In this document: positions 3,692 through 60,647 of the stretch, piece by piece
Layout of the letters: each line of letters starts with the position of its first letter
How positions within the stretch are numbered: position 1 is the first letter of the stretch
IMG/VR virus record: IMGVR_UViG_3300045115_000211
Coordinates: 32,001-96,000 of that record
Origin: a virus
Length of the DNA: 64,000 nucleotides
Strand: one strand, 5' to 3'
Made by a program: the position numbers and the translations under genes
Notes under the pieces: model-generated
Told to the model about the DNA's origin: nothing
What the model saw: only the letters and a program-made list of their open reading frames with translations
Databases searched by the model: none

Positions 3692-3960
3692 GGGACCATG
3701 ATCTTCACGCTCGGCAGGAAGGACATCTACGAGCCGCTCTTCGTCGACCCGGACAAGCCTCCGAGGAAGGCGAAGGGCGGTAGCGTCTGGCAGACCTGGG
3801 GCGGGGCCGAGAAGCACAGGCTCTCGATGCCGAAGCCCAACGACTTCGCCGTGTACGGCGTCGGCGCCGACTGGCACAGCTCGCAGGTAAGGGCCGAGGA
3901 GAGGGGCGTCGAATGGCGCTCCTTGACGGTCGATGCTCCCCTCGTGAGGATAGCCGTCTG

Positions 3961-5190
3961 ATGAGCGACATGGGCATGTCCTTCTTCTACGGGATGGCGA
4001 TGCTGCCGATCCTGATCGGCCTGTTCCTCTTCGCCAAGAAGCGCGAGGTCGTGTGGTGGGAGTGGCTCGCGGGCTGCGGCCTCGCCCTGCTGATGGCGGT
4101 CATATTCCATTGGATCGCCCTTGAGGCGCAGTGCCGCGACCACGAGGTCTTCTCCGGCAAGGTCGTCTCGGCGACACATCACCCCTGGTGGCAGGCCCGC
4201 GAGGAGGTTGACGACTACGAGGACGAGGAGTACACGGACTCCGAAGGCAACAAGCACACCAGGCGCAAGAAGGTCGGTTCGCACTACGAGTACCACGACC
4301 ATCCCGAGCATTGGACGTGCGAGGCGGACTTCGGATCGTACTCCTCGACCGTCGAGTACGAGATCGACCAGGCGTTCTTCCGCCAGATCGCGGCCAACTT
4401 CTGCGGCGGCAGCCTGCGGACCGTGCAGCCGTGGAAGTCGGACTTCTACAAGGGCGACAAGAACGAATACGTCGCCGACAACAAGACGGGCTACGTCTAC
4501 CCAACGACCCGCTGGATGGCCTTCAAGAACCGCGTCAAGGCGTCCCCCAGCCTGTACTCCTTCGCCCCGGTCCCCAAGGACGCCAAGGTCTTCCCGTACC
4601 CGGCCTGCAAGGACCCGTTCGCCTCCGACAGGCTCGTGGGGACGGCGAGGCAGACCATCCCCTTGAGGGACTTCGACGTGATGTGCTCGTCCCTCGGCCC
4701 AAGGAAGAAGGTCAACCTGATCATGGTCGGGTTCGGCGAGGCCGGATCCGAGGCGGCCCACGTGCAGGAGGCTGCCTGGGTTGGCGGCAAGAAGAACGAC
4801 CTCGTCCTCTGCTACGGCGGCAAGGACCAGAGGAAGCCGTCCTGGACGTACGTGTTCGGCTGGACGGACAAGGCCATCGTGAAGGTCAACCTCCAGTCCA
4901 TCCTGCTGAAGAACCCCATCGACGCGACGATCCTGCCACTCGTCGAGGCGGAGGTCTCCAGGAACTACGAGATCAAGGAATGGAGGGACTTCAGCTACCT
5001 CCAGGTCGAGCCGCCGGCGTGGTCGTACTGGGTCTACATCTTCGTGATGGTCGGCGCCCAGGTCGGGTTCTGGTTCTGGGCCAGGTCGAACGAGTTCGGG
5101 AAGGACACGCCGCGCGGATCCGGCCCGAGGAACCCCTTCGACAGGACCTTCGGCGGGTTCGGGTCGGGCGGCAGGAGGCTGTTCCGGTGA
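3961..5190 (+). CDS. membrane protein (N-terminal TMs, C-terminal TM, GGKKND motif)
   Basis: hydrophobic segments at both ends; WVGGKKNDLVLC. Confidence 0.6.
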   Translation: MSDMGMSFFYGMAMLPILIGLFLFAKKREVVWWEWLAGCGLALLMAVIFHWIALEAQCRDHEVFSGKVVSATHHPWWQAREEVDDYEDEEYTDSEGNKHTRRKKVGSHYEYHDHPEHWTCEADFGSYSSTVEYEIDQAFFRQIAANFCGGSLRTVQPWKSDFYKGDKNEYVADNKTGYVYPTTRWMAFKNRVKASPSLYSFAPVPKDAKVFPYPACKDPFASDRLVGTARQTIPLRDFDVMCSSLGPRKKVNLIMVGFGEAGSEAAHVQEAAWVGGKKNDLVLCYGGKDQRKPSWTYVFGWTDKAIVKVNLQSILLKNPIDATILPLVEAEVSRNYEIKEWRDFSYLQVEPPAWSYWVYIFVMVGAQVGFWFWARSNEFGKDTPRGSGPRNPFDRTFGGFGSGGRRLFR

Positions 5191-7726: not shown

Positions 7727-7955
7727 CGTCCGGAGAACACGATGGGCAAGCCTCGCGACGAATGGGGCGGTGACGACGGGCGCGACAGGCGCGACCGCCA
7801 CGAGAAGGTCAACTCTTGCGAGGACTGCGGCGAGAACGGCGGCCGCAGGAGGTTCGAACGCGGCATCGACCTCGGGTTCCTGTGCGACTCCTGCTGGCGC
7901 GAGTCGCAGGCCGAGGCAGACCTCGCATCCGAATAGCCTGCTGTATAATGCCCGC

Positions 7956-9038
7956 ATGGCAACCATCTTCAGCCTCTTCACCGGAGCCGGAGGCCTTGAC
8001 CTCGGGTTCGCACAGGCTGGGTTCCGCACGACCCTCGTCGTCGAGACCGACAAGGCCTGTTGCGACACGTTCGTAGCGAACTTCCACGGCGACCTGACGT
8101 CGGTCAACGGTCCCGTCGAGAACGTGTCGTTCTCCGAGGATTCCCCGGGATTGCTGGAGGTTGCGTTCCGTGGAGCGGAATTCGAGAACCGCTTCCTTCA
8201 GCCACATCCAGACGTCGTGATAGGAGGGGCCCCTTGCCAGGCGTTCTCGGTGGCTGGCCTTCAGAACCCAGACGACCCGAGGGGCACCCTGGTGGGCGAG
8301 TTCGTCAGGATCGTCAGGGAGGTCAGACCGAAGGCGTTCGTCCTGGAGAACGTGCCCCGCCTCCTGACCTCGACGAAGCCCCATGCCGAAGCCGCCAGGC
8401 TGTCCGTGCTTGCCCTGCATGACGTCGGCTACTCCGTCACGACGCACGTCCTGAACGCCAGGGACTTCGGCATCCCGCAGTCCCGCGAGAGGGTCTTCTT
8501 CGTCGGGATGATGAGTCCACTCCCCCACCTCCGGGCCTCTTCCACCGACGGCCACATGTTCCCCCACAGGACTGCCGGCGAAGTGCTGCGCGAGATCGGA
8601 AGGGAAGGAAGGGGAAACGTGCCGAACGCCAAGGTCCAGCCGTCCAAGAAGCCCATCCTCCGTCTGACCCCGTACGCCGGGATGCTGTTCAACGGGACAG
8701 GCAGGCCGATCAGGCTGGACGGGTTGTCTGGCGCCCTGCCGGCATCGATGGGAGGGAACCGCACGCCCATCATCGACGACGAGGAACTGTACGACGGGGC
8801 AGAGCCGTGGGTCGTCCGGTACCACTCCAGGCTCGTGGCCGGCGGGGCACCGGAAGCCTCGGCGCCTGTGAGGCTGCGCAGGATGACGACCGTCGAGGCG
8901 GCGGCCTTCCAGGGGTTCCCGTCCGGCTTCAAGTTCCGTGGGAGCCAAAGCAGCGTGTTCAGGCAGATCGGCAACGCCGTCCCTCCCCCGATGGCGCGCG
9001 CCGTGGCGATGGCGGTCAAGGAGCACATGGGGCTTTGA
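7956..9038 (+). CDS. DNA cytosine-C5 methyltransferase
   Basis: SLFTGAGGLD, GGAPCQAFS, ENV, QSRERVF, QIGNAV; TATAAT 6 nt before ATG. Confidence 0.95.
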   Translation: MATIFSLFTGAGGLDLGFAQAGFRTTLVVETDKACCDTFVANFHGDLTSVNGPVENVSFSEDSPGLLEVAFRGAEFENRFLQPHPDVVIGGAPCQAFSVAGLQNPDDPRGTLVGEFVRIVREVRPKAFVLENVPRLLTSTKPHAEAARLSVLALHDVGYSVTTHVLNARDFGIPQSRERVFFVGMMSPLPHLRASSTDGHMFPHRTAGEVLREIGREGRGNVPNAKVQPSKKPILRLTPYAGMLFNGTGRPIRLDGLSGALPASMGGNRTPIIDDEELYDGAEPWVVRYHSRLVAGGAPEASAPVRLRRMTTVEAAAFQGFPSGFKFRGSQSSVFRQIGNAVPPPMARAVAMAVKEHMGL

Positions 9039-13041: not shown

Positions 13042-13497
13042 GCGGCGACAAGGACGGCGGGTTGCCAAGGTTCTTCTGCGGCCAATGCGGGGGGCTTTGG
13101 TGCGTGTGGTGGGGAGGGGACGCCCCGTACGTCTACGGGTTCGTCGACCGGGCCACGGCCGAGCGACTGACGAACGAACTCAACAGGCGCCTCGATGCCC
13201 TGGTCAAGGGAAGGGATGGGGCGAAATGATCGAGGCACGCGACACGGAGAAGTACGGCAGGCTCAGCGACGGCGAGCGCGAGAGGCTTGGAAGGCAGCTC
13301 GGCATGCTCGGCGACCGCGGAAGGATATGCTCCGGCACGAAGGGGGAGGTCGAGGACGAGATCGTCAAGTGGGTCGAGGAGCTCCGGATGGAGTTCCCAT
13401 CGACCTACAGGTCGCACAGCACCTGCAGGGCCCATGCCGTGAGGCTGGCGAACCGTATAATGGGGATAGTCGAGGCAAAGAAAGGGAAGGAAGCAAC

Positions 13498-14091
13498 ATG
13501 AGGACGAGCGGCAACCTGGTCCCGATCGTGATCGAGCAGACGCAGCGCGGGGAGAGGGCATACGACATCTACTCGCGGCTCCTCAAGGACCGCATCCTGT
13601 TCATCGGCACCGGGATCGATGACGAGGTCGCGAACAGCGTCATCGCCCAGCTCCTCTTCCTGCAGGGCGACGACGCCGAGAAGGAGGTCAGCCTCTACAT
13701 CAACTCGCCCGGCGGGCACGTCACGGCGGGGCTGGCGATCTACGACACCATCCGGTTCCTCAAGTGCCCCGTGGCGACCTACTGCGTCGGGCAGGCCGCC
13801 AGCATGGCGGCGGTGCTCCTGTCGGCCGGCACGAAGGGCAAGCGGTTCGCCCTCCCGAACGCGAGGGTGATGATCCACCAGCCGTGGGGCGGGGCGCAGG
13901 GGCAGGCGTCCGACGTCGAGATCCAGGCGAGGGAGATCGTCAGGGTCAAGGCCCGCATCAACGAGATCCTCGCCGCCACGACCGGCAAGCCCCTCAAGGC
14001 CGTCGAGAAGGACACGGACCGCGACTTCTTCATGGACGCCGACGAGGCCGTCAAGTACGGCATCGTGGACAAGGTCGTCGGGAAGCCGTGA
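13498..14091 (+). CDS. clpP: ATP-dependent Clp protease proteolytic subunit
   Basis: [36 protein letters not shown]. Confidence 0.97.
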
Positions 14092-16296: not shown

Positions 16297-18397
16297 CATG
16301 GCGACAGCCACGGGTAAGGTCAAGATGGCGGTTGCGGTCGTCAAGGCGCTCCGCGCGTCCTGGGAGACGCCGTCCGCGTCCGACCCGGATGTCAAGCGAT
16401 GGGCCGGCAAGCCGCTCAACGAGCTCAAGAGGAAGCACGACTGGGCCGTCCAGGCGATAAGCGCGATGACGTGGAACACGATGCTGGCCGGAGGGCCAGT
16501 CACTCCGCTCGGGAGGCGGAAGCGATAGCCAACGGGAGCCGAAAACATGTCACACACGACACAGGGAAGGGTGGCGACGTTCATCCACGACGGAGGCGTC
16601 GAAGGGGTGGAACTGCTTCCAAGGGAGGTCACATGAGGACCCAGGTATTCGCCCATCGCGGCATCGTGGGCATCAAGTCGAACCCGGACGCCGAGGGGCT
16701 GCTCAACAGGCCCATGGACCCCGGACAGCTCGGCTTCGTCGTGGACGGCGCACACGTGGACATCCACCCCGACGCCATCGAAGCCCTGAAGACGGTCAAG
16801 AAGTCTGCCGACTGCATCGGCGACGTCGATGTGTTCAGGGGGAACGACGGCAAGGTCGTCTTCTCATGGCTGGGCGGGCCCATGCGCATAATCGATCCCG
16901 CCACCTGCGACGGGAGCCGCGACTATGACCCGAGCCTGCTTGTGCCCAACCCGGGCGTGCAAGTCGATCCCGACTTCGTGGCATGCGTCGAGAGCAAGTT
17001 CGCGGGGGCGCCAACCCAAGCGGGACCCGGCGCGAAGGAGGAATGACGATGCACCTTCAATACGAGCACCACGGGACGATGGTCTGGGTCAGGGAAGACC
17101 TCAAGGGCAAGCACAGGTCGTTCCGCCTGTGCCACTCGTGCGCCAGGTTCAAGCCTGGGCAGCCCGACAACTGCCACATCGCAAACGACACCTACCAGAA
17201 CTGCGTCAGGCACGGCCTGACGACCCCCGTGTTCGAGTGCCCAGCCTTCGACCACCGCAAGGACAGGCCGACGTCGGGGCAGGTCGTCACGCTGGAGGAG
17301 GCCAAGCAGGACGAAGGGCTGCGCAAGGAGCTGGCGGGAGCCATGGTCATGATCCGCTCGCGGGAGCATGGCGCCTTCTGGCGGGAGAACTGCTGCGGAT
17401 ACACCGACCAGGCGTGGCAGGCAGGCGCCTACAGGTTCGAGGACGCCTACGAGAACACGTCCCATTGCGACAGGAGCAAGGGCATCGAGTTCGTCGTGCT
17501 CTAGGAGGACCGCCATGGGAAAGCTATACGTCGTGAGGGACGCCACCGGCAGGCAATGGCTGTGCCCGTCGAAGCCTGTGCTCGTCGGCTCTCCGCCGAA
17601 CAGGCGTTGGGAGATCAAGGTAAGCCCGATCGACACGGTGGGGGTGTGCAAGGAGAACGGCTGCATCATGCTGGGGCCGGTAGACGCCCTCGACAGGTCG
17701 TGCTTCGACGGCGAGGACGAGTGGAAGGCATACCCGGTCGGGATCGCCCTGTGACAGCGGGACGAACATTGGAGCGCGGATGGACCGGGGCTTGACCGTC
17801 GGCTGTAGAATGCCAGTATGTCGAAGTTCATGAGACAAGAGCAGGGGGATCGAGTTCGTCATCCTGCGGGATGCGTTGTGGGCGGCGAAAGGACAAACGG
17901 GAAGACCTGCAAGAGGCAGGACGGGTGCTCCACTCACGCATGGACGAGCCTCAAAAGCGGTCCTTGCCAATCCAAGGACTCGTGCAAGGACTACAAGCCC
18001 GTGTCCGCCACCTCGCTTCTTCCTCGGCTTCACAGCCACCCGACGCTTGAGCGCAAGCTCGGCGTTCCAGAGGGGCATGCCATCATCGACTCCGAGGCGT
18101 TCCTCTTGCTGCGCGAAATCCACGGCATGGGTCCCATCCGCCGCAAGCCCGACGTGCCGCGCGACAGGCGCGGCGTGAACGTCGGCGAATGGATCGACGC
18201 GAACTGAGGCGAGCATCCATGGCCGACTGCGTCATGTGTGGAGCCCCAATCCCGGACCGGCAGCGCACCTGCAGCATGTGCTACGGCGATCCCGACCACG
18301 GGAGCGACGGCTACTACAGGCGGTGGCTTGAGGAACAGGCAAGACAGGCCGAGGAACGCCGGCAAGAGCCGGAACCGCAGGAGCGGTAGAATGGGAT

Positions 18398-29440: not shown

Positions 29441-30598
29441 ATGAAGGTGCTGGTGGGCATGACCGGGAGCGTGGCGACGACCATAGCCCCCAAGATCGTC
29501 AAGGCGATCGAGGATGGCGTCCCACTTCTGGACTCCGTCGAGGTCGTGATGACCGACAAGGCCCAGATGTTCTTCGGGGCGGATGCCCTGCGGCGTCAGG
29601 CTGGGGTCAGGGTCTACACGGAGCGGGACGAGTGGATATGGAGCAGGAGAGAGCACCCGAACTTCAACAGCCCATACCCCATCCCACCCGAGGACAAGTG
29701 GCAGAAGGGAGACCCCATCCTGCACGTCGAGCTCGCCAAGCGGTCGTCCTGCCTCGTCATCGCCCCGGCGTCGGCCAACACCCTAGGCAAGATGGCGCAC
29801 GGCATCTGCGACAACCTCCTGACGTCCGTGTTCCTCGCGTGGCGGAGGAGCCGCCCCGTCGTCGTCGCCCCGTCGATGAACTCCCACATGTGGTCGTCCC
29901 CCGTTGTGCAGGCCAGCCTCAAGGACCTGCGGGCGACGAACCCCAACATCGTCGTCGTGCCTCCCGTCGAGAAGGAACTCGCGTGCGGGGACGTGGGGGT
30001 CGGGGCGCTCGCCGACGCGGGCGACATAGCCAAGGCGGTGGCTTGCGCCCTGCGCTGGGACTTCCCCCTTCCGGAGACGACCTGCCCTGGCATCCCCGTC
30101 GGGAACCACCTCGGCTCGTTCGGGATCGTCCGCCGGCATGGCAAGCGCCATTGCGGGGTCGACCTGTACTGCCGGAACGGGACGATGGTCACGGCGGTCG
30201 AGCCCGGGGTCGTCGTCGCCATCGATGGCTTCACCGGGGCGTCCGTCGGCTCGCCATGGTGGAACGAGACCAAGGCGGTCAAGGTGGAGGGGGCGAGCGG
30301 GGTCGTCTGCTACGGTGAAATCAGGCCGTACTTGAGCCTCAAGGTCGGCGACATGCTCGGCAGGGGAGACCCCTTGGGGCAGGTGGAGCAGGTCCTGCCG
30401 GACGGACAGTTGCGCGGCGACATCCCCGGCCACTCGCTATCGATGCTCCACATCCAGCTCTACGAGCATGGCCGCGTCCACAAGGACGAGTCGTGGCTGG
30501 AGGGGCAGCCCCAGCCCGGCGGCGTCCTCGACCCCACGCCCTTCCTGCTGGACTGCTGGAAGGGCCTGACGCTGGACATGCCGGAGGCAAAGGCGTGA
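29441..30598 (+). CDS. coaC: PPC decarboxylase (CoaC, flavoprotein) fused to M23-peptidase-like domain
   Basis: TGSVA, APASANTLGKMAHGICDNL, PSMN..MW, LACGD.G.GAL; then HCGVDL...VTAVEPGVV...DPTPFL. Confidence 0.85.
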   Translation: MKVLVGMTGSVATTIAPKIVKAIEDGVPLLDSVEVVMTDKAQMFFGADALRRQAGVRVYTERDEWIWSRREHPNFNSPYPIPPEDKWQKGDPILHVELAKRSSCLVIAPASANTLGKMAHGICDNLLTSVFLAWRRSRPVVVAPSMNSHMWSSPVVQASLKDLRATNPNIVVVPPVEKELACGDVGVGALADAGDIAKAVACALRWDFPLPETTCPGIPVGNHLGSFGIVRRHGKRHCGVDLYCRNGTMVTAVEPGVVVAIDGFTGASVGSPWWNETKAVKVEGASGVVCYGEIRPYLSLKVGDMLGRGDPLGQVEQVLPDGQLRGDIPGHSLSMLHIQLYEHGRVHKDESWLEGQPQPGGVLDPTPFLLDCWKGLTLDMPEAKA

Positions 30599-31254
30599 AC
30601 ATCCTGATCATCGCAAGGCACAGGATGCGGTACTGGTGGCGCAGGTCAGTTAAGGCCTTGGGGTTCTGCCCAGATTGCTGGAGCATCCTGAACTACACGA
30701 CGAGGGGCAGGCCGATATGCCCGAGGTGCGGGAGGTAGACCTCCACGTGAAGTGGCACGGCAAACGGTTGCGTGGCGTGACGCGGTGGGAAGTCCGGCAT
30801 TCCGAGGGCGCTGACCACGGTCTGCGCCCGCAGAGGTTCGGTTCGCGACGCGAAGCAGTGCTCCGCGCCCGCGAGTGGAACAAGGACTTTCCGGGACACG
30901 TCGTGTGCCCGGTGTTGCCACACGCCCAGCCTCGCCCTGTTCGTCACATCAAATGAGACAGACGCAGCGGTCAGGACATGCCGCGCCGAAGCGAAAGGAA
31001 ACGGGGATGAGAAAGCACACGGTCAAGGTGACGGTGTCTGGGTCGAGGGGGACAGGGCTCACGACGATCGCCGAAGTTATCCGCCAGGCCCTTGAGCAGG
31101 CCGACTTCGAGTGCGAGGTCTCGTCGGGATTGCAGAGGGAGTTCGACGACCTTCCCGGCGGCTCCTTCGACCTTCGCTGCGGCGCCGTCAGGGAAAAGAC
31201 CATGGTCGTCATCGGGGAACTCGCCTGCCGCCCTGGCAAGGCGGGGAAGTAGGC

Positions 31255-40772: not shown

Positions 40773-41951
40773 ATGCCGTTCGTCAAGGGATCCGAGCACC
40801 GCTTCGCCATGAGGGGAGCCGACAGGACGCCCACGTTCCCCGACCGCTGGTACAACACGAAGGACGGCATCGCGAGGTCGGCGAAGACGCTCGCCGGCCT
40901 GAACGCCCTATTCAGCGCCAGGCGCGACGCGGGATATTGCCGCAACGAGCGCCTCGCCGAGTTCGTGGTCCTCGGCATGTGGTACCTCGACACCTGCGGC
41001 AACGCCATGAAGGCGATGTCCGACGCCCGGGACTTCAACGTGACGCCCAGGAAGGCGTTCACAGACGCCGGCATGGCCATCCCCGACGCCATCGGGATGG
41101 ACGAGATGCACGCCGCCCTCAAGCCCCACTATGCCGAGGACAAGTACCCGCACATGTCGTTCGCGGCGGGGAGCGACCTTCCACAGGCCTATTTCCTGTG
41201 CGCTGGGTGCGGCCGCCCGTGGACCATCGCCGACTGCGACGACGCCGTGTGCGAGCGGGAGGAGGAGGTGGCGAAGGCCGAAGGCTGCGCCGGGATGACG
41301 CTCGGGGACTTCCGCAGGTCGTTCGATGGGCGCAACGACGCCTTGTTCGTGTTCCAGCCCGAACTCGCCGTCCGCAACGACCGCTTCATCGACCTGTCGC
41401 CGAAGTACCCCGGCACGGACAAGGATTGGGAGAAGGGCGTCCCCAAGAACGAGCACGGATGGAAGTCGGAGGGGGAACTCTCTGCCTCGATGGACGCGGG
41501 GGAAATCCACGCCCCGGCGTCATCCCAGCCGAACGTCGACACCTACGTCCTGCAGCCCGGCGACGAGGTCTTGGTCAACGTGTTCCGCTACAGCCACAGG
41601 GCATGCCTCCAGGCCAAGGTCGACCGGGCCGCCATGGCGGCGTTCGCCAAGGCGTTCGAGGACGCCGGCCTGCGGACGGGGATCGGGCTGGCGGAGGTCG
41701 AGAACGAGTACGGCTCCCGCTCGTACCGCGGGCCGTGGTACGTCGCCATGACCGAGATCGGCGAGGTCCGCGTCGGATGGCGCAAGCGGGTCATCGAGGT
41801 CGTCTTCCCCGACTGGGTCCCCGTCGGCACCCTGTTCGCCAAGGAGGACGTCACCAAGTCGGCACACCTGATCCACGCCTGGGGCTACGACAAGCTGGCC
41901 GAGTACCTCAAGGCGGCGAAGAAAGCGGCGAAGGAAGCGAGGAAGACATGA
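40773..41951 (+). CDS. hypothetical phage protein
   Basis: SD AGGAG; N.Y....PW...T..G...VGWRKRVI...EDVTK...IHAW. Confidence 0.7.
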   Translation: MPFVKGSEHRFAMRGADRTPTFPDRWYNTKDGIARSAKTLAGLNALFSARRDAGYCRNERLAEFVVLGMWYLDTCGNAMKAMSDARDFNVTPRKAFTDAGMAIPDAIGMDEMHAALKPHYAEDKYPHMSFAAGSDLPQAYFLCAGCGRPWTIADCDDAVCEREEEVAKAEGCAGMTLGDFRRSFDGRNDALFVFQPELAVRNDRFIDLSPKYPGTDKDWEKGVPKNEHGWKSEGELSASMDAGEIHAPASSQPNVDTYVLQPGDEVLVNVFRYSHRACLQAKVDRAAMAAFAKAFEDAGLRTGIGLAEVENEYGSRSYRGPWYVAMTEIGEVRVGWRKRVIEVVFPDWVPVGTLFAKEDVTKSAHLIHAWGYDKLAEYLKAAKKAAKEARKT

Positions 41952-42337
41952 GGAAGCAGGAGAAGTTCGTCCCATCCCTCAACGACCGCGGCTACAGGTT
42001 CCGCTGCCATGCCAAGGGCGCGCCTGGGGCGTCCGTCGTGTTCGACGTCAGGACCCACCCCCAGTGCTTCGGAACGGGCGACATCCCCGCCCGCTCGACC
42101 TGCCTCATCGATGGCAAGGGGCGGGAGGTCTTCGAGCACGACGTGCTTGAGCTCAGGTCGACAGTCACCGACATGCACAAGCGCAACGCGACGGGCGAGT
42201 ACGGCCCGATGCTGTTCCTCGTGGCGTGGCGCCACGGCGACCCCGTCCTGATCGACCAGGACGCTGTAGAATGGCTTATGGCAGGTAGGGTCGCTCGCCA
42301 CGGGCGAGCGTGGATTGAAACGATGGAAGGGGATTGA
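41948..42337 (+). pseudogene. YopX-like protein whose 3' end is replaced by the CRISPR mini-array
   Basis: YRFR...STCLIDGKGREVFEHDVL (YopX-like); ORF reads through the repeat (VARHGRAWIET). Confidence 0.6.
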
Positions 42338-42378
42338 CAAGGCGCGACTTCGCCCCGCAAACGGGGCGTATATTGGAC
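42290..42378 (+). CRISPR. mini-array: perfect repeat, 27-nt spacer, degenerate repeat (candidate cas-regulating crRNA-like RNA)
   Basis: GTCGCTCGCCACGGGCGAGCGTGGATTGAAAC (42290-42321); TTCGCCCCGCAAACGGGGCGTATATTGGAC (42349-42378) keeps a 7-bp stem. Confidence 0.85.
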
Positions 42379-42462
42379 GGGTCATGGACTGTGGCTACCA
42401 TGGGATTTCTCAATGCCACTTCTTGGGTCGTTGCGAAAAAAAAAAGATTCTATGGAAAGGGG

Positions 42463-42492
42463 TTGACTCCCGACCCATAGTTGTGAGATACT
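42463..42492 (+). promoter_or_regulatory. cas operon promoter
   Basis: TTGACT-18bp-GATACT with TG extension, A-tract UP-like element upstream. Confidence 0.75.
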
Positions 42493-42556: not shown

Positions 42557-43459
42557 ATGTCGCAGAAGTCGCAGAAGGTCGAGTTCGAGGTTAATGGAGT
42601 TCGCTATGTGGTGTTCGTCGATGCGCGGAGGTCCAACCCTAACGGGCAGGGACAGGGCGAGAACCAGCCCAGGCACTTCGACGACGGCACCGTGTGGGCC
42701 AGCGCAGAAAGCATCAAGCGCGGCATCAGGGACACGTGGATCGCAGAACTGGATGGCGTCCCCGGCTGCGACGTGTTCGTCTACCCCAGGCGCCCCATCG
42801 TGGAGGCCATCGCTGCGGCCCGTCCCGGACGCCAGCGGTTCGACGACGCCGGCGAGATGGCTGCGGCGGTACGCCAGAAGTACATCGACGCACGGGCGTT
42901 CGGTGTCGTCCTGGCAGACGGCAAGGCCGAGAGCGGCGACGATGACGATGGCGGCTCCAAGAAGAAGTCAAAGCAGCTTTCGATCGGGCTCAGGGGGCCA
43001 GTCGTCGTCACCGACGCCGACTCCGTCGAGCCCACGCCGATCGAGGAAATGGACATCTCTCGCTGCTGTCCCCACAAGGACGACAACGACAAGGACCACA
43101 ACCAGGGGAAGAAGTGGTTCGTCCGCTACGGCCGCCTGCGCTTCTGCGTCTATGTCGAGCCGCACATGGCTCGCCAGAGCGGGTTCAGCAAGGAAGACCT
43201 CGGGCGCCTGGAGGATGCCCTGAAGGACGTCTACAAGCACAGGCGCACCGCCAGCCGCCCCGACATGAGGACCGTGGCCGTCTACCGGCTGACCCCTCGC
43301 GAAGGCATGAAGCCCTCGTCGAGGGCGATGGACGAGATCACCGACCGCATCCAGTCCAAGCGGGTCGTCCCCGGAGACGTCCCGACCGAGGGGTGCTACT
43401 CCCTGCCCAACGCCGAGGAGTTCTGCACCGAGCAGGTTCTCGTCGAAAGGATCGACTGA
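42557..43459 (+). CDS. cas7: type I-C Cas7 (Csd2), divergent
   Basis: SNPNG...N.PR, IKR.IRD, YID.RAFG.V, RGPV, G.KW.V.YG, A...GFS.EDL. Confidence 0.85.
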   Translation: MSQKSQKVEFEVNGVRYVVFVDARRSNPNGQGQGENQPRHFDDGTVWASAESIKRGIRDTWIAELDGVPGCDVFVYPRRPIVEAIAAARPGRQRFDDAGEMAAAVRQKYIDARAFGVVLADGKAESGDDDDGGSKKKSKQLSIGLRGPVVVTDADSVEPTPIEEMDISRCCPHKDDNDKDHNQGKKWFVRYGRLRFCVYVEPHMARQSGFSKEDLGRLEDALKDVYKHRRTASRPDMRTVAVYRLTPREGMKPSSRAMDEITDRIQSKRVVPGDVPTEGCYSLPNAEEFCTEQVLVERID

Positions 43460-43466
43460 CCGACAC

Positions 43467-43503
43467 GATTGCCGCCTGTGGCTGCTTGCCACAGGCGGCA
43501 ATC
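43467..43503. terminator. perfect 16-bp inverted repeat between cas7 and cas5
   Basis: GATTGCCGCCTGTGGC-TGCTT-GCCACAGGCGGCAATC; no clear U-tract. Confidence 0.6.
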
Positions 43504-43520
43504 AACCAAGGGAGGCAACC

Positions 43521-44201
43521 ATGGCTACCAGCAGCAACGTCAGGGTCCTGGTCGGGATTCGCGGGCGCAGGGCCTGCTTCTCCAACCCGTCCGCCGGCAA
43601 GATCAACAAGTTCTCGTACCCGTTCATCACGGTGTCGGCGGCGCGAGGAGTGGTGGCGTCCGTGTTCCATCGCCCGCAGATGGACTGGGTGCCGACCCGC
43701 ATTGCGGTCATGAGGGCCGGACGGTCCGCCAACGTCGCCAGCAACGAAATCGACTTCGATCTGTCGTCGACCGATCCCGTCTTCGCCGACGAGGCAAGGA
43801 TGCAGGTCAGCGCGCGGATTCTCGTTGACGTCGACTACATCATCGAGGCCGAGCCGGTCGTGCTCTGCCCCGGAACCACCGATGACCCGAACACGCCGGA
43901 GAAGTATGCCGCACAGTTCAACCGCATCTTGGTGGACGGCAAGGGGCTGTACTACTCCACGCCGTGCCTTGGCCCGCGCCAGTACGTCGGGCGGCTCTAT
44001 CCCGTCGAGCGGTTCCCGGAGCGGGGGTGCGCGATCCCCGACCTGGAGGTCCGATCCATGTTGGTCGGCATCTCCAAGGGCGCCGACAGGCGCGACGGCG
44101 GACGGGACTATCCCGTTTTCGCCGACATCCGCCTCGTAGATGGGATCTTCTCCGCCCCGAGGTTCGTGTCGTCCATGTTCAACCCTGGAGAATCGGCATG
44201 A
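43521..44201 (+). CDS. cas5: type I-C Cas5 (Cas5d)
   Basis: G.RACFS.P, SYPFIT.SAARG, L.DVDY.IEA, KY...F.R, PCLG.R. Confidence 0.9.
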   Translation: MATSSNVRVLVGIRGRRACFSNPSAGKINKFSYPFITVSAARGVVASVFHRPQMDWVPTRIAVMRAGRSANVASNEIDFDLSSTDPVFADEARMQVSARILVDVDYIIEAEPVVLCPGTTDDPNTPEKYAAQFNRILVDGKGLYYSTPCLGPRQYVGRLYPVERFPERGCAIPDLEVRSMLVGISKGADRRDGGRDYPVFADIRLVDGIFSAPRFVSSMFNPGESA

Positions 44202-46030
44202 TTTCGATGAGCCCGGTCCAGGAGGTCATCGCCCTGTATGACGCGCTTTCGGCGGCTGGCCAGATGCCGCCCCTTTGTTGGGGGCAGGCGACGATCGGAA
44301 TGACGGTGAAGATCGACGATCATGGGGGCGTCAGGACCGCCATGCCGCTCGGCAATGACTGCTCGATGGTCGTCCCCATCCCGTTCGTGTCCAGGTCCTC
44401 TGGCCTGGCGCCGACATTCGGGACGGACAACGCCAAGTACCTCGTGGGCGAGGCATGGGAGGCGTGGCGCGAACACCACCTCGCCTTCTCCGACAAGGCC
44501 GCGTTCCCTCCCGCATTCGTCCACTTCCTCAAGAACGGGAAGACCCCGTTCGTCCCCACCAAGGAACCCAAGATCATCAGGCTCTCGGGTTCGGACTTGT
44601 CGGGGACGTTCGTCATCGAGTTGCCTGACGGCACCTACCTGCACGAACACGCCAGCGTCAAGTCGTTCTGGCAGCCGGACAACATCATCGATTGGGAGAA
44701 CCACGGCAGGCTGTCCCAGGGTCGAGACCCGATCCGCACCGTCGAGGGGTATTCATCGGTCGACGGCAAGTGGGGCAAGCTCGTCGAGTTCCACGCCGCG
44801 ATCGGGATGGTCGTACCCGAGGCCCAAGGCTCCGCCAAGCTGGGGGCGGTAAACACCAGTGGCGGGGGGTACTCTTCGTACGGAATGGACGGCGGCTTCA
44901 CTTCCCCCATGACCATCGACCAGACGTTCAAGTTGGCATCGACGATCAGGTTCCTTGGCAACAGGGACAAGGCCGCAGGAGACCGAACGTCGTGCAGGCC
45001 GATCGTCGCGCGGGGAAGGAAGATCAGCATCATGTCCGACAGGATGAAGGCCGTGAAGGCCCTCGTCCTGGGCTGGGGCGAGCCGACGGCGGTGTCGTGG
45101 ATGAACGAGGAGTTCGCCAAGGACGACGACTCCATGAGGAAGGCCATCGACGTCATCGATGGGATCATGTGCGGCAAGGCCGAGGTTCCTGGCGTGACGC
45201 AGGACGACCGGGTGTGCTTCATGGCGATGTCCGCCCCGACCAAGGGTCGGATAGCCATTGACGAGTTCTGGTCTGGGGACGCGCCGACCGTCGCCGTCAA
45301 GATGGCCAAGTGGCACGCCGCATCGATGACCACGGATCCCGACATGACCCGGCAGGTGCAGACGAGGTACCAGTTCGTGAAAAGCCTCGGGATTGGCCAC
45401 GACAAGGCGCTGAACGAGAGCGAGGCGCACGTCGTCAGGGGACTGTTCCAGTCCGCCATCGAAGGCGAGCAGATGCCGGTCGACATCGCATACCATGTCA
45501 GGAGGGCATGCCAGAGGGTTCTGGCCACAGGGGACGCATTTGTCCACGGGCGTTCGAGCCTGTACAGCCCACTGCGCACGCTCCGGGGCTGCATGGCTAG
45601 GGCGGGAGTGGGGTTCAATGAGGGAGGATACGAGATGATCGATAAGACCGCGGCATACCAGTTGGGCGTCCTGCTGATAGCGTTCGACGACGCCGTGCGG
45701 AGCGACGAGTGGAGGCGGACGAGGAAGTGGAGCCGCAGCAGCGTTAACGGCCTGCACTCGAACACGAAGAGCATCCTTCCGACGTGCCTGGCGAAGCCGT
45801 CGGCGGCGGTGGCCACAATGCGGCATAAGCATATGCAATACTACGCGCGGTATTGGCCGCAGGACGCCGTCAACATCAACGACGAGTGCTTCTCCGCTCT
45901 GCCCGCAACCCCTCTTTCGCAGCAGCAGCGGGACGAGTTCTTCGCCGGCACCGCACACGGCCTCGAACTGCGCTCCAGGAAGATCGCCGCCATCAAGGCG
46001 GCAAAGACCCAGAGGGAAGCGCGTGAATAG
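44198..46030 (+). CDS. cas8c: type I-C Cas8c (Csd1)
   Basis: RSSG.AP....DNAKY..G, AKL...N....SYG, GRIA...F, AY.LG. Confidence 0.85.
   Translation: MISMSPVQEVIALYDALSAAGQMPPLCWGQATIGMTVKIDDHGGVRTAMPLGNDCSMVVPIPFVSRSSGLAPTFGTDNAKYLVGEAWEAWREHHLAFSDKAAFPPAFVHFLKNGKTPFVPTKEPKIIRLSGSDLSGTFVIELPDGTYLHEHASVKSFWQPDNIIDWENHGRLSQGRDPIRTVEGYSSVDGKWGKLVEFHAAIGMVVPEAQGSAKLGAVNTSGGGYSSYGMDGGFTSPMTIDQTFKLASTIRFLGNRDKAAGDRTSCRPIVARGRKISIMSDRMKAVKALVLGWGEPTAVSWMNEEFAKDDDSMRKAIDVIDGIMCGKAEVPGVTQDDRVCFMAMSAPTKGRIAIDEFWSGDAPTVAVKMAKWHAASMTTDPDMTRQVQTRYQFVKSLGIGHDKALNESEAHVVRGLFQSAIEGEQMPVDIAYHVRRACQRVLATGDAFVHGRSSLYSPLRTLRGCMARAGVGFNEGGYEMIDKTAAYQLGVLLIAFDDAVRSDEWRRTRKWSRSSVNGLHSNTKSILPTCLAKPSAAVATMRHKHMQYYARYWPQDAVNINDECFSALPATPLSQQQRDEFFAGTAHGLELRSRKIAAIKAAKTQREARE
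45635..46030 (+). CDS. cas11: internally translated Cas11c small subunit
   Basis: in-frame ATG preceded by GGGAGGA SD, followed by MID...AYQLG, the position where I-C Cas11 is known to start. Confidence 0.75.
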   Translation: MIDKTAAYQLGVLLIAFDDAVRSDEWRRTRKWSRSSVNGLHSNTKSILPTCLAKPSAAVATMRHKHMQYYARYWPQDAVNINDECFSALPATPLSQQQRDEFFAGTAHGLELRSRKIAAIKAAKTQREARE

Positions 46031-48428
46031 GCGCGACAAGACCCGATACGTCGGGATGGTCGAGGGCCTCGGCCTCAACCCCTATTCCCGCCCCGCGCAT
46101 CTGGAAAACGGCTTGCTGGCCCCGCGGGAGCGGTGGGAGGTGATGCCGGAACACCTGGGCGCCGTCGCGGCCTTGGCCAAAGCGTTCGGAGACAAGATCG
46201 GTCTCGGAGACATATGCGAGGTGGCGGGAGGCGGGCACGACACGGGAAAGTTTGACCTCCAGATGCTTGGCAGGTTCCTTGGCCGCGTCGAGTCGTTCGA
46301 CCATCCCGCCCTCGGCGCCGCCCTGTTGGACGCCGCCACGGAAGGCATACTGACGCAGCCGATCCTAGGGCACCACCGCTACATCCCCGACGAGACGGAG
46401 GAGGACGCCTCGGAATGCGTGTCTGCAAGGCTGGAGAAGGCAGCCACCCATCGGCATTCCATCGAACTGATACCCTTTCTGGATCGCGCCGCCGAGGCAG
46501 CCAGGACGGCGAAGTCCGTCCTGAAGGCGGCGTTGCGGTCGGAATTCCCGAACGCCGCCGACCAGGAGCGCTTCTTCCCGATGTTCTTCTTCGCGATGCA
46601 GAAGTTCATCAACTCGGCCCTCGTCGATGCGGACTGCCTGTCAGCCGAGAGGTTCCACAAGGGTCACGGACGCCGGAACAGGTTCCCCCCGATGTCCGTC
46701 CTCCTGGATCGACTCGTGAGGTTCCAGGCCCGGGTTGCCGCCGCAGGAGCGGCGACGGCGGAGCCTTGGCTTGTTGAAATGCGCAACGACGTGTGGGCGT
46801 CCGCGATCTCCGCCGCCCGGCTGGAAGCCTCGTTGTACTTCCTGACCGCCCCGACGGGAAGCGCCAAGACGCTGGCCTACGTCGTGCTTGCGATGATGAA
46901 GGCCGTCAGCTTGGGCCTCGACAGGGTGATCATCGTGCTGCCCTATTGCGCGGTCACGTCCCAGGTCAGCGACGTCCTTCGGGCCGCCATCGGCAGGGGC
47001 AATGTGATAGAGCACCACACGGGCTACGACCCCAAGGAACGAGTCAAGTCTTTCCGCTCGTACCGCCAGATACTGGCGAACACCCCAAGGAACACATCGG
47101 CGTTGCACAAGGAGTCCTCCAGCCTGCAGGAGGAGATGAGGCAGACTTTCGAGAACTGGGACGCCCCCGTGATCGTCACCACGCGCGAGCAGTTCGACGA
47201 GTCCTTCTTCTGCCGGCTCCCAGGGCGCAGCCGCAAGGTCCACAACATGGCCAGGAGCGCCATCGTGTTCGACGAGATCCAGGCCGGCAACAGGGACCTG
47301 ACCATACCGTTCGTCGGGATGCTGCACGTCCTGCGGTCGCTGTACCGCTCGGTCGTCATCTGCTCCACGGCCACCCAGCCGTCCTATCACAAGTCTGACG
47401 ACAGGCAGTGGGGACTGGAAGGAGGGGTCGATGTCGTCGCCAGGCATCGCGAGTATTTCGCCATCGCTTCTCGACGCACCAGCATGACCAGGATAGGCAG
47501 GAAGTCATCCCGAGAAGTGGCCGAGATGGTCGCCGAGCACCGCCAGGTCATGTGCGTCCTGAACACGCGCCTCAACGCCGTTCTCGTCTCGACACAACTG
47601 GAGAGGATGGGGGTTCCACACATCCTGCTGTACTCCTTGCGCTGCAAGCGCGAGCGCAACCGGGTGGTTCGCCTGGTGGCGAGGTGCCTGGCAGCAGGCA
47701 TCCCCATCAGGCTGGTCACCACCCAGGCGGTCGAGGCGGGGACTGACTTCGACTTCCCGGTCGGGTATTCCGAGGACGCCCCGTTGGACTCCCTCGACCA
47801 GCGCCGCGGTCGAGTCAACCGGCACGGAAGGCGTGGGACGAGCCAGTTCTACGTGTTCACCCTGTGTGACGGCAACAGCAACCCCTCGTACGTAGCGGGC
47901 TTGGCCTCCACCGAGACCGTCCTCTCATCGACGGGGGACTTCAACGTCGTCGACGTCGGGACGATGGACGCCTACTACGCCAGGATGTTGAGGAGCGAGA
48001 AGCCGCTCGACAAGCACAGGATCGTCCCCGACAGGCACATGTCGATGTCCGGGCGCGGCGGTCTTTTCAGGTCGAAGTCGAAGTATCCTCCGACCGCCGG
48101 GGCCAATGTCTACAGGACGAGGTTCGCCTCGTACGACGAGTTCAAGTACATCGGCGGAAAGTGCAGCGTCGTGATCCCTACCAACGCCGAGTGCAGGCGG
48201 GCGATAGCCGACATGGATGCCGCCATGGCATCGGGAAAGAAGCCCGCTCGAAAGACGTTGGCCACCTTGAGCGGATACGTCGTCAGCATCTATGAGAACG
48301 AACTGGATGATCTCGCCCGTAAGACCATCTTGGAGAACCACAATGGGTTCTTCGTCCTGCGCGATGTGGCTGGCTTCTATAATGCCAAGAGGGGTCTGCT
48401 GATCGCTGGGATGGATGGAGTGGATTGA
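46023..48428 (+). CDS. cas3: Cas3 HD nuclease-helicase
   Basis: EHL, HDTGK, DH, GHH, LVDAD; APTGSAKT, ENWDAP, DEIQ, STATQP, TQ.VEAG.D.DF, Q.RGRVNR.G. Confidence 0.93.
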   Translation: MNRRDKTRYVGMVEGLGLNPYSRPAHLENGLLAPRERWEVMPEHLGAVAALAKAFGDKIGLGDICEVAGGGHDTGKFDLQMLGRFLGRVESFDHPALGAALLDAATEGILTQPILGHHRYIPDETEEDASECVSARLEKAATHRHSIELIPFLDRAAEAARTAKSVLKAALRSEFPNAADQERFFPMFFFAMQKFINSALVDADCLSAERFHKGHGRRNRFPPMSVLLDRLVRFQARVAAAGAATAEPWLVEMRNDVWASAISAARLEASLYFLTAPTGSAKTLAYVVLAMMKAVSLGLDRVIIVLPYCAVTSQVSDVLRAAIGRGNVIEHHTGYDPKERVKSFRSYRQILANTPRNTSALHKESSSLQEEMRQTFENWDAPVIVTTREQFDESFFCRLPGRSRKVHNMARSAIVFDEIQAGNRDLTIPFVGMLHVLRSLYRSVVICSTATQPSYHKSDDRQWGLEGGVDVVARHREYFAIASRRTSMTRIGRKSSREVAEMVAEHRQVMCVLNTRLNAVLVSTQLERMGVPHILLYSLRCKRERNRVVRLVARCLAAGIPIRLVTTQAVEAGTDFDFPVGYSEDAPLDSLDQRRGRVNRHGRRGTSQFYVFTLCDGNSNPSYVAGLASTETVLSSTGDFNVVDVGTMDAYYARMLRSEKPLDKHRIVPDRHMSMSGRGGLFRSKSKYPPTAGANVYRTRFASYDEFKYIGGKCSVVIPTNAECRRAIADMDAAMASGKKPARKTLATLSGYVVSIYENELDDLARKTILENHNGFFVLRDVAGFYNAKRGLLIAGMDGVD

Positions 48429-48465
48429 AATTGGACGAGCCGTCTGCCGGATGAGGACAGAGCAA

Positions 48466-49872
48466 GTCGCTCGCCACGGGCGAGCGTGGATTGAAACGAC
48501 TCCACCCGTCGGGATCAATGGCGGACAGAGGTCGCTCGCCACAAGCGAGCGTGGATTGAAACCCCGACTCGTTCCTGCTGCCCGAGTTCGACGAGTCGCT
48601 CGTCACAGGCGAGCGTGGATTGAAACTGTTCGGGCTTTTGCGACCAAGCCTGATAGCGCTTGTCGCTCGCCACAGGCGAGCGTGGATTGAAACAGGTTGT
48701 TGCCGAGCGCCGCGAGCCGCAACACGAGTCGCTCGCCACAAGCGAGCGTGGATTGAAACGACTCTCGCCGCCGGCATCAATGAAGGTCATGGTCGCTCGC
48801 CACAGGCGAGCGTGGATTGAAATGCGCGCTCGCCGTACGCCTGCCCAAGCTCAGGGGCGTCGCTCGCCACATGCGAGCGTGGATTGAAATGGGTCTTCGG
48901 GCAGGCACAGACCCTGTAGGTATGTCGCTCGCCACAGGCGAGCGTGGATTGAAATAGCGCCTGCTTGGCGGCGATGTAGGCGTCCAGTTGTCGCTCGCCA
49001 CAGGCGAGCGTGGATTGAAATGAGAGCGAACGCCGCGGACATCGCGGCACGACGGGTCGCTCGCCACAGGCGAGCGTGGATTGAAATATCTGGGTTCGGT
49101 CCCTGTCGCCGATGACGCGACGTCGCTCGCCACAGGCGAGCGTGGATTGAAACCTCCCGTACCCGCCGGGCATGCTCAGGTGCTACGGTCGCTCGCCACA
49201 GGCGAGCGTGGATTGAAACGACCGTGAGGGCCTGCCCCAATGTATGTGGCGGTCGCTCGCCACAGGCGAGCGTGGATTGAAACGCGTACGTGCAACTCGT
49301 ACGAAAGCTGGCCAACGGTCGCTCGCCACAGGCGAGCGTGGATTGAAACCTTCACTTGCCCCCGTCTCGCCGCTCGGCGTGTCGCTCGCCACAGGCGAGC
49401 GTGGATTGAAACGCCCTGCATGCCGTCAGGGCCGAGGCGGTGAAGATCGCTCGCCACAGGCGGGCGTGGATTGAAACGTGACGAACGGGGAGACAACGGT
49501 CGACCCTCTGCGTCGCTCGCCACAGGCGAGCGTGGATTGAAACGCCTCCAAAGCGCCGCGCCACGGCCGCCATGGAGTCGCTCGCCACAGGCGGGCGTGG
49601 ATTGAAATATGATGTTCGAACTGGACTGCCCGATCCCGTCTGGTCGCTCGCTACAAGCGAGCGTGGATTGAAACATGTCGAGTCCCTCCTGATACGCGCC
49701 CACCATGGAGTCGCTCGCCACTGGCGAGCGTGGCATTGAAACAAGGTCCGCAGGATATCGATGTGGCCCGACGAGGTCGCTCGCCACAGGCGAGCGTGGT
49801 ATTGAAACCGCAAGCCCCGCTGATCGACATCACCTGCCCGGTCGCTCGCCACAGGCGAGCGTGGATTGAAAC
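48466..49872 (+). CRISPR. type I-C CRISPR array, 22 repeats / 21 spacers (31-35 nt), plus a degenerate repeat at 48400-48431 and a 34-nt spacer before it
   Basis: consensus GTCGCTCGCCACAGGCGAGCGTGGATTGAAAY, 32 bp. Confidence 0.98.
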
Positions 49873-59600: not shown

Positions 59601-60647
59601 GGTGCCATGAAGTCAACGAAGCACCGGCATGTCGCCGGGCGGGCGGCCGAAAGGCTGGACGCCGCCCTGCGGGTGGACGCCGACGCCGCCAGGCGCGAGC
59701 ACGCCCTCGTGGCGATGGCGACGCTGCTCGTCTCCGGGGGCTGCCGCGCCTGCTCGTCCCCGCGGGAGGTGAACCGGCTGATGCCCGACGGGGAGTGGTT
59801 CCGCACGCGGCACGAGCTGAGGCGCGTCACGGGCGGGCGGAAGGCGGCGCTGCGGAGGCTCGCCGCCGGCGGGATCGTGCCTGCCGGCCGTTTCGGGGCA
59901 TGGTCGCCCGACTTCTGGGCTGGCTTGCGGCTTTCCGGCGCGATCCATCCCGACAGCCATCCGAGGGAGTGGGTCGTGAGGTTCCCGCGCAGGCACGAGG
60001 CGTTGCTGGAGGACATGCTGGGCGAGGCGCCGTTCATGCGCCGCTGGTCGGACTCCAAGCGTGGGGTGACGCTCTGGTCGCTGTGGGCGGCGGAGATGGG
60101 GGCCGACGATCCGGCGGGCGCCGGCGTGCTGGCGGGGCTGATGGCTGGGGCGCGCAGGCTGGACGACGGACAGGGGATGGGGTGGGCCGTGGTGACGGAC
60201 TCCTTGGGCGCCAGGCGGCTTCTGGGGGATCTGATGGTGCCTTTCGTTGTGGAGCGGCGGAGGCGGGGGCTGGCGTTGAGCCCGTTCTGGGGGGCGCTGG
60301 TGGCGCACATGATGCCTGCGGCGAGCGCGGAGAGGTACAGGCTGTGGCTTCGGCCGGCGTGCTGTCCCTTGCTGCCGTGGGCGTTCCTGGCGCACGCCTG
60401 GGGGAAGGGGTTCGCCGGGATGAGGCGGCACGTGCCGTGGGCGTCGGCGCGTCCGTGGGCGATCAGGGGCAGGTTCCCCACGGAGGGCAGGCGGCTCCGG
60501 AGGGCTGGCCTGGACAGGCTGGGGTTCCTGGGCGTGTCGCCCGTGTTGAGGGCCGCCTGGCTGGAGGGGGCGCGTCGGAAGGGGCTTGACTTCGAAGGGG
60601 GGATGTGTCATGATGGTCTCGTGAAAGGGGAGGAAGGGACGCCATGA
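59598..60647 (+). CDS. hypothetical basic protein next to the skew switch
   Basis: long ORF; start uncertain. Confidence 0.55.
   Translation: MGAMKSTKHRHVAGRAAERLDAALRVDADAARREHALVAMATLLVSGGCRACSSPREVNRLMPDGEWFRTRHELRRVTGGRKAALRRLAAGGIVPAGRFGAWSPDFWAGLRLSGAIHPDSHPREWVVRFPRRHEALLEDMLGEAPFMRRWSDSKRGVTLWSLWAAEMGADDPAGAGVLAGLMAGARRLDDGQGMGWAVVTDSLGARRLLGDLMVPFVVERRRRGLALSPFWGALVAHMMPAASAERYRLWLRPACCPLLPWAFLAHAWGKGFAGMRRHVPWASARPWAIRGRFPTEGRRLRRAGLDRLGFLGVSPVLRAAWLEGARRKGLDFEGGMCHDGLVKGEEGTP
60586..60614 (+). promoter_or_regulatory. sigma70-like promoter
   Basis: TTGACT-17bp-CATGAT. Confidence 0.7.

Follow-up and report, generated by a model that had tools for sequence, protein, structure and literature searches.

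Type I-C CRISPR-Cas systems, such as those of Desulfovibrio vulgaris and Neisseria lactamica (structures 7kha, 8dex and 8g9s-8g9u), lack Cas6 and have the gene order cas3-cas5-cas8c-cas7-cas4-cas1-cas2. CRISPR-Cas systems without adaptation genes have already been published from huge phages, and these include a 'type I-C variant' (Al-Shayeb et al. 2020, PMC7162821). Regulatory mini-arrays of the CreR kind have also been described (Liu et al., bioRxiv 10.1101/2023.03.10.532045; Shmakov et al., 10.1101/2023.03.03.530964). In the comparison with those two studies, the published viral mini-arrays target host cas promoters, and viral solitary repeats that act against hosts have been published as well (PMC10651486). 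Here we describe a CRISPR-Cas locus at positions 42557-49872 of a 64,000-nt window, that is, bases 32001-96000 of the 113,194-bp record IMGVR_UViG_3300045115_000211, which IMG/VR classes as a virus and which is linear, without terminal repeats. Positions below are those of the window unless stated otherwise. The locus consists of four cas genes and an array, and a mini-CRISPR lies just upstream. Taken as a whole, it is probably best explained as an interference-only, phage-borne CRISPR-Cas system of a rare and divergent I-C lineage, with autorepression of the CreR type.

A four-gene type I-C operon without adaptation genes

The operon is encoded on the plus strand in the order cas7-cas5c-cas8c-cas3, with the genes tightly packed and the array behind them. 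cas7 (42557-43459) encodes a protein of 300 aa of the I-C/I-B type (PF05107, E 5.7e-36). cas5c (43521-44201; 226 aa) belongs to the Cas5c family, and its product is presumed to be the endonuclease for precursor CRISPR RNA (pre-crRNA). cas8c (44198-46030; 610 aa) encodes a very divergent large subunit that matches PF09709 (E 1.8e-27). cas3 (46023-48428) encodes an HD nuclease and superfamily 2 (SF2) helicase, which has 801 aa from a GTG start and 790 aa in databases. All four frames are open, with a strong signature in third-position GC content (GC3) and the codon bias that is typical of the phage.

The best PADLOC models for these proteins were Cas3c (1.2e-119), Cas5c, Cas8c (2.5e-25) and the joint I-B/I-C model of Cas7. 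The NCBIfam scores of all four proteins fall far under the curated cut-offs (49 versus 218 bits for Cas8c), and cas7 matches TIGR02589 at 2e-28, which is under the cut-off of that model. Thus, the subunits are I-C by best match and are strongly divergent. Cas5, Cas7 and Cas3 align with solved I-C chains from N. lactamica and D. vulgaris (8g9t, 8g9s, 8g9u and 8zns). Cas7 reads NPNGQG where the I-C Cas7 of N. lactamica (8g9s_B) reads NPNGDP, and it bears an acidic/basic insertion loop. In Cas5c, the WKP region reads HRP.

The locus has the same four protein families as canonical I-C systems, also without Cas6. It shares with them the HD domain fused to Cas3 and the DExQ form of motif II, a Cas11c-sized frame inside cas8c, and a repeat of 32 nt that folds into a 7-bp hairpin and has the end ATTGAAAC. 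In contrast to the canonical systems, it has the rearranged order cas7-cas5-cas8c-cas3, NGQG in Cas7 and PTGSAKT in Cas3, and neither an adaptation module nor a leader. A preliminary description of this DNA had claimed a full Cascade with a Cas3 whose HD residues are intact, a 21-spacer array, the rearranged gene order, divergent subunits with these two unusual motifs, and no cas1, cas2 or cas4 in the window. Our analysis agrees with it on every one of these points.

Pfam models of Cas1, Cas2, Cas4 and Cas6 had no match anywhere in the 113,194-bp record, which CheckV estimates to be 62% complete. The flanks of the locus, ~74 kb on the upstream side and ~31 kb on the downstream side, contain no adaptation genes. 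The locus has all the genes for interference, and those for adaptation are absent from the 113 kb. Like the huge-phage systems of Al-Shayeb et al., it has a large-phage carrier, no Cas1, Cas2 or Cas4, and presumably Cas5d-like processing without Cas6. However, the published I-C variant has a non-Cas3 helicase (PMC7162821), whereas this locus has a true HD-Cas3, and thus it is a different thing.

On sequence comparison, Cas3 and Cas8c belong to a small clade that is separate from ordinary I-C proteins, and they do not nest within the I-C clades of hosts. Among 1.84 billion representatives, Cas8c has 11 matches at E <=1e-3, the best of them 36% identical; for Cas3, identity is 39-47% in six relatives and 31% in the next. 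Contigs of 137,785, 13,159 and 17,617 bp recur among the relatives of both proteins, so the two genes probably travel together in this clade. Queries with Cas8c and Cas3 against viral, metagenome and genome contig collections found no relatives. When Cas8c and Cas7 served as queries in word-based homologue searches, each retrieved nothing but itself, and the GenBank phage set contains no Cas7 or Cas3 closer than ~25-30%.

Cas8c has no match in the PDB by sequence. The top 11 Foldseek matches of its AlphaFold model (folded with four relatives; predicted local distance difference test, pLDDT, 68) are all I-C Cas8c chains, the best at E 6.6e-15 and ~14% identity. Its C-terminal helical bundle, which is confidently modelled, resembles the small chain of I-C Cascade, 8dex_J. 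A candidate internal cas11c (45635-46030, plus strand) begins at the ATG of M480, with the strong Shine-Dalgarno sequence GAGGGAGGA ahead of it and 131 aa left to the C-terminus. M480 is invariant across the five-member Cas8c alignment. The small subunit of D. vulgaris corresponds to Cas8c residues 489-612 (PMC7684278). We infer that Cas11c is translated from the internal start at M480.

Cas3 matches the I-C Cas3 chains 8g9u and 8zns at ~1e-52. The HD residues H44, H72-D73, H94 and H117-H118 are conserved, as are all HD and helicase motifs except for G281. Motif II reads DEIQ, which is normal for I-C Cas3; the solved proteins read DEAQ. The Walker A motif reads APTGSAKT (G281A), where every relative in the clade and the outgroup have SGKT or GGKT. 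The four independent assemblies that span the motif all have SAKT, and Cas3 is near-identical across those assemblies. The G281A change is real and fixed in the phage. An alanine before the Walker lysine occurs in active ATPases such as MCM. The Cas3 relatives share a terminal W-N-L-P-C motif; the phage Cas3 instead ends in residues that are encoded by a degenerate repeat.

The array and its spacers

This degenerate repeat, R0 (48402-48431, plus strand), keeps both ends of the repeat, has lost the hairpin, and contains the coding sequence for the final residues of Cas3 together with its stop codon. It is followed on the same strand by a spacer-like stretch of 34 nt (to 48465) and then by repeat 1. 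Hence, no leader separates the array from cas3, which it adjoins. In the array itself (48466-49872, plus strand), 22 repeats, each 32-33 nt long, alternate with 21 spacers of 31-35 nt. The repeat is of the I-C type and aligns with that of the array on plasmid pDV1 of D. vulgaris Hildenborough. The exact repeat was found in none of the species genomes and nowhere in IMG/VR, and a search with the 3' half of the repeat gave only two chance singletons. Separately, an Rfam search gave no match.

The 22 repeats include 11 sequence variants. Sister-repeat arrays, with a repeat that differs from that of the phage by one loop base, occur in Joint Genome Institute (JGI) metagenomes and are uniform (43/43, 26/26, 20/20 and 15/15 repeats). 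Compared with these, the heterogeneous repeats of the phage fit an array that is no longer refreshed by active Cas1-Cas2. Within the repeat stem, the six inner pairs show wobble changes, and the closing pair has one compensatory change. This covariation is not significant, as the counts are too few and 90 of 500 shuffles score as high.

The sister-repeat arrays lie on contigs L002, L003, L005 and L007 and have 15-43 repeats. Their spacers are ~55% GC, and spacers overlap between L002 and L007 and between L003 and L005. No spacer in them is common to the phage array, and none targets the phage.

The spacers of the phage array have a GC content of 65.5%, and the phage has 64.4%. Spacers 1 and 5 match in register at 22 of 32 positions, a level that none of 2000 shuffles reached. 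This similarity points to two true acquisitions at one protospacer-adjacent motif (PAM) site from diverged targets.

The preliminary description had called for a search for spacer targets and derivation of a PAM. Searches of phage, plasmid, IMG/VR and own-genome sequences gave no convincing target, and no PAM was derivable. In the phage's own genome, spacer matches never extended beyond 15 consecutive nt. The phage database gave two matches only, both at chance level and both extending into repeat sequence. In pattern scans of IMG/VR, spacers 1/5, 2 and 3 either had no match or had a single chance match that failed outside the fixed positions. With no target, the proposals in the preliminary description that the locus is an inter-phage or anti-host weapon and that it borrows host adaptation machinery can be offered only as suggestions.

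One candidate was set aside. Spacer 5 (48760-48791) resembles a helix-turn-helix (HTH) gene on a Rhodococcus plasmid (L011, 1498-1531), with 29/31 identities by BLAST, 27/32 over the spacer, and an E value of 0.03. This match is a weak lead only: spacer positions 1-3, which belong to the seed, mismatch, and there is no adjacent TTC, which is named as the I-C PAM in one report (10.1101/2022.06.15.496202). An actinobacterial host or target for the phage is weakly hinted at. The HTH regulator gene resembling spacer 5 is conserved on seven Rhodococcus plasmids, and Mycobacterium abscessus prophages carry distant homologues of it close to their left end.

A mini-CRISPR upstream of cas7

The mini-CRISPR upstream of cas7 has three parts, all on the plus strand. 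psiR1 (42290-42321) is a solitary full repeat of 32 nt, identical to repeat 1 of the array with the 5'-handle nucleotides retained, and lies inside the end of a yopX-like gene. It is followed by a pseudo-spacer of ~26 nt, psiS (42322-42347). The third part, psiR2 (42348-42379), is either a degenerate repeat or a terminator-like hairpin. It has a 7-bp stem (42351-42357/42362-42368) followed by TATATT; the hairpin is present in both the minimum free energy (MFE) and the centroid folds, and the likeness to the repeat was judged by eye. The last 16 codons of the yopX-like gene are made up of psiR1 and the start of psiS. A population variant of the phage (L004) carries G42266T, a Val-to-Leu change in the yopX-like gene, just upstream of psiR1.

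The predicted promoter of the cas operon (42463-42492, plus strand) reads TTGACT-18-GATACT with a TG and is the only sigma-70-like promoter predicted within 900 bp. It belongs to a class with a recurrent -35 motif, GTTGACTCC, which occurs at 13 sites in the window, where 0.68 are expected. The sites lie mostly ahead of plus-strand genes (for example, at 2987, 14313, 40704, 42462, 49956 and 57274), and the motif looks like a phage promoter class. Since the cas7 promoter is one of the 13, the cas operon is wired into the phage's own class of promoters.

The sequence that psiS matches (42448-42467, plus strand) consists of a TTC PAM and 17 nt (42451-42467) that overlap the -35 hexamer. The first 17 nt of psiS match this site at 14 of 17 positions, the exceptions being positions 1, 8 and 12. 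The match does not continue past position 17, which would permit binding without cutting. The 12 other promoters of the GTTGACTCC class match psiS at only 6-10 of 17 positions, and none has the TTC. Across the window, 0.24 sites with three or fewer mismatches to psiS are expected; a second site with three mismatches, at 60574, does not have the TTC PAM.

This arrangement is like that of CreR in two respects. A repeat, a pseudo-spacer and a degenerate second repeat lie in that order upstream of the effector genes, and the PAM-proximal portion of the pseudo-spacer partially matches a site that is flanked by a PAM and lies at the -35 region of the predicted cas promoter. In CreR, however, the match covers 10-15 consecutive nt, whereas the psiS match is interrupted. 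Also unlike CreR, this candidate element belongs to a virus-encoded system, and its repeat forms part of the 3' end of a gene that encodes a protein. On balance, we lean toward the view that the mini-CRISPR is a CreR-type autorepressor of the predicted cas7 promoter.

The carrier and alternative explanations

We conclude that the carrier of the locus is a large phage. A 425-aa protein encoded at 3913-5190 (phrog_2087) has tblastn matches mostly in phage genomes of ~200-600 kb (Lak phages and phages of Erwinia, Aeromonas, Tenacibaculum and Xanthomonas) and may be a conserved jumbo-phage core protein. The direct upstream neighbor of the cas locus is the YopX-like gene (41948-42337; 129 aa), and PHROG matches flank the locus on both sides. 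The fragment carries a virion structural protein (phrog_1383) and genes of the kind found in large phages, including ribonucleotide reductase, NAD ligase, three methyltransferases and HNH cassettes, and nearly all transcription is in one direction. The same phage is present in JGI metagenomes (L004 and L006). The preliminary description had placed the locus among phage-type genes, and its contig has not turned out to be chromosomal. Its proposed search of the rest of the genome bore out the absence of cas1, cas2 and cas4 and the presence of phage genes, but the hallmark genes did not follow, as Pfam models of terminase and HK97 capsid had no match in the 113-kb fragment. The virion module is probably located in the missing part of the genome.

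Some other genes of the phage are of interest in their own right. The three methyltransferases are paralogous DNA methyltransferases (phrog_116), one at 7770-9038 of the window and two at 17372-18349 and 29890-30978 of the genome. A ClpP-family protease (13195-14091; PF00574, E 5.5e-83) has an N-terminal extension of 110 residues and is labeled a head maturation protease in PHROGs. At 29441-30598, a CoaC-like flavoprotein domain (PF02441) is fused to a weak Peptidase_M23 domain. For the gene at 40773-41951, searches of Pfam, PHROGs, NCBIfam, PADLOC and the Atlas all gave no match.

Several observations weigh against the explanation that we prefer, and the alternatives draw on them. For the mini-CRISPR, two of the mismatches (positions 1 and 8) are seed mismatches, and the match comes from one phage population; two other samples are identical there, so they yield no covariation. 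In addition, the hairpin after psiS could simply be the terminator of the yopX-like gene. It is quite possible, although it is not the view that we favor, that the mini-CRISPR is not an autorepressor. It could be a scar of array recombination with a hairpin that terminates yopX, a decoy or anti-CRISPR RNA of the solitary-repeat type, or a Cracr-type RNA directed against a host I-C system. Repeat units have clearly moved into gene ends in this phage, where the yopX-like gene and cas3 both end in repeat-derived sequence, and host-directed viral solitary repeats (PMC10651486) and promoter-targeting mini-arrays are published. Against these possibilities stand the match of psiS to the phage's own cas promoter, with the I-C PAM, the specificity of that match among 13 promoters of the same class, and its low expectation in the window.

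Other points bear on the system as a whole. As 38% of the genome is missing from the record, adaptation genes are shown to be absent for 113 kb only, and in a linear record without terminal repeats, cas4-cas1-cas2 could lie in the unsequenced part of a complete system. We think this unlikely, since adaptation genes normally adjoin the effectors and the array, and here the flanks on both sides have none, the array abuts cas3 without a leader, and the repeats are heterogeneous, in contrast to the 100% uniform sister-repeat arrays from the environment. The heterogeneity cuts both ways: half of the repeats are variants and two have a 1-nt insertion in the 5' handle, and together with a G281A change that might weaken the helicase and the lack of detectable targets, this could indicate an inactive, decaying relic. 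Such decay also seems improbable to us, given four intact frames with phage-typical codon bias, the HD and helicase motifs kept apart from G281, inner-stem changes that are wobble or compensatory (although too few for significance), and a sequence that is stable across independent assemblies. A carrier other than a phage, either a plasmid or a host genomic island, might explain why 113 kb yielded no terminase, portal or HK97 capsid match and why the 'head protease' is a ClpP-family protein. We give this very little credence in view of the virus class in IMG/VR, the homologues of the 3913-5190 protein in large phage genomes, the phrog_1383 virion protein and the YopX-like protein, the HNH cassettes, reductase, ligase and methyltransferases, and the nearly one-directional transcription.

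We infer that an interference-only phage system with autorepression would work as follows. The phage-type promoter would drive cas7-cas5c-cas8c-cas3 and probably the abutting array too, Cas11c would be made from the internal start in cas8c, and the pre-crRNA would be cleaved by Cas5c at the hairpins of its repeats. Cascade, composed of Cas7, Cas5c, Cas8c and Cas11c, would then find DNA targets of high GC content, likely those of competing mobile elements or of the host, for degradation by the HD-helicase Cas3. With no adaptation genes in 113 kb, the array depends on past acquisition, acquisition in trans, or recombination. The mini-CRISPR probably gives rise to a crRNA-like RNA that would guide the same Cascade onto its own promoter, where it would bind and not cut.

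What is new in this locus is a discrete and very divergent clade, a new gene order with a true Cas3, and a candidate self-targeting mini-CRISPR. It leaves unchanged the general picture of large phages as carriers of CRISPR systems that lack adaptation genes. Phage-borne CRISPR systems show how viruses use parts of host immunity against rivals, and most published examples have merely been catalogued. A compact, self-contained four-gene Cascade-Cas3 with almost no relatives may be of interest for genome editing, and its Cas3 offers a natural Walker A variant. We speculate, tentatively, that the lineage is restricted to phages, that its array is functional without adaptation genes, and that its CreR-type self-repression is the first RNA-guided autoregulation in a virus-encoded CRISPR-Cas system. 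If this is true, a virus would be tuning the expression of its own CRISPR system with a crRNA-like RNA, and CreR regulation would extend from cells to viruses.

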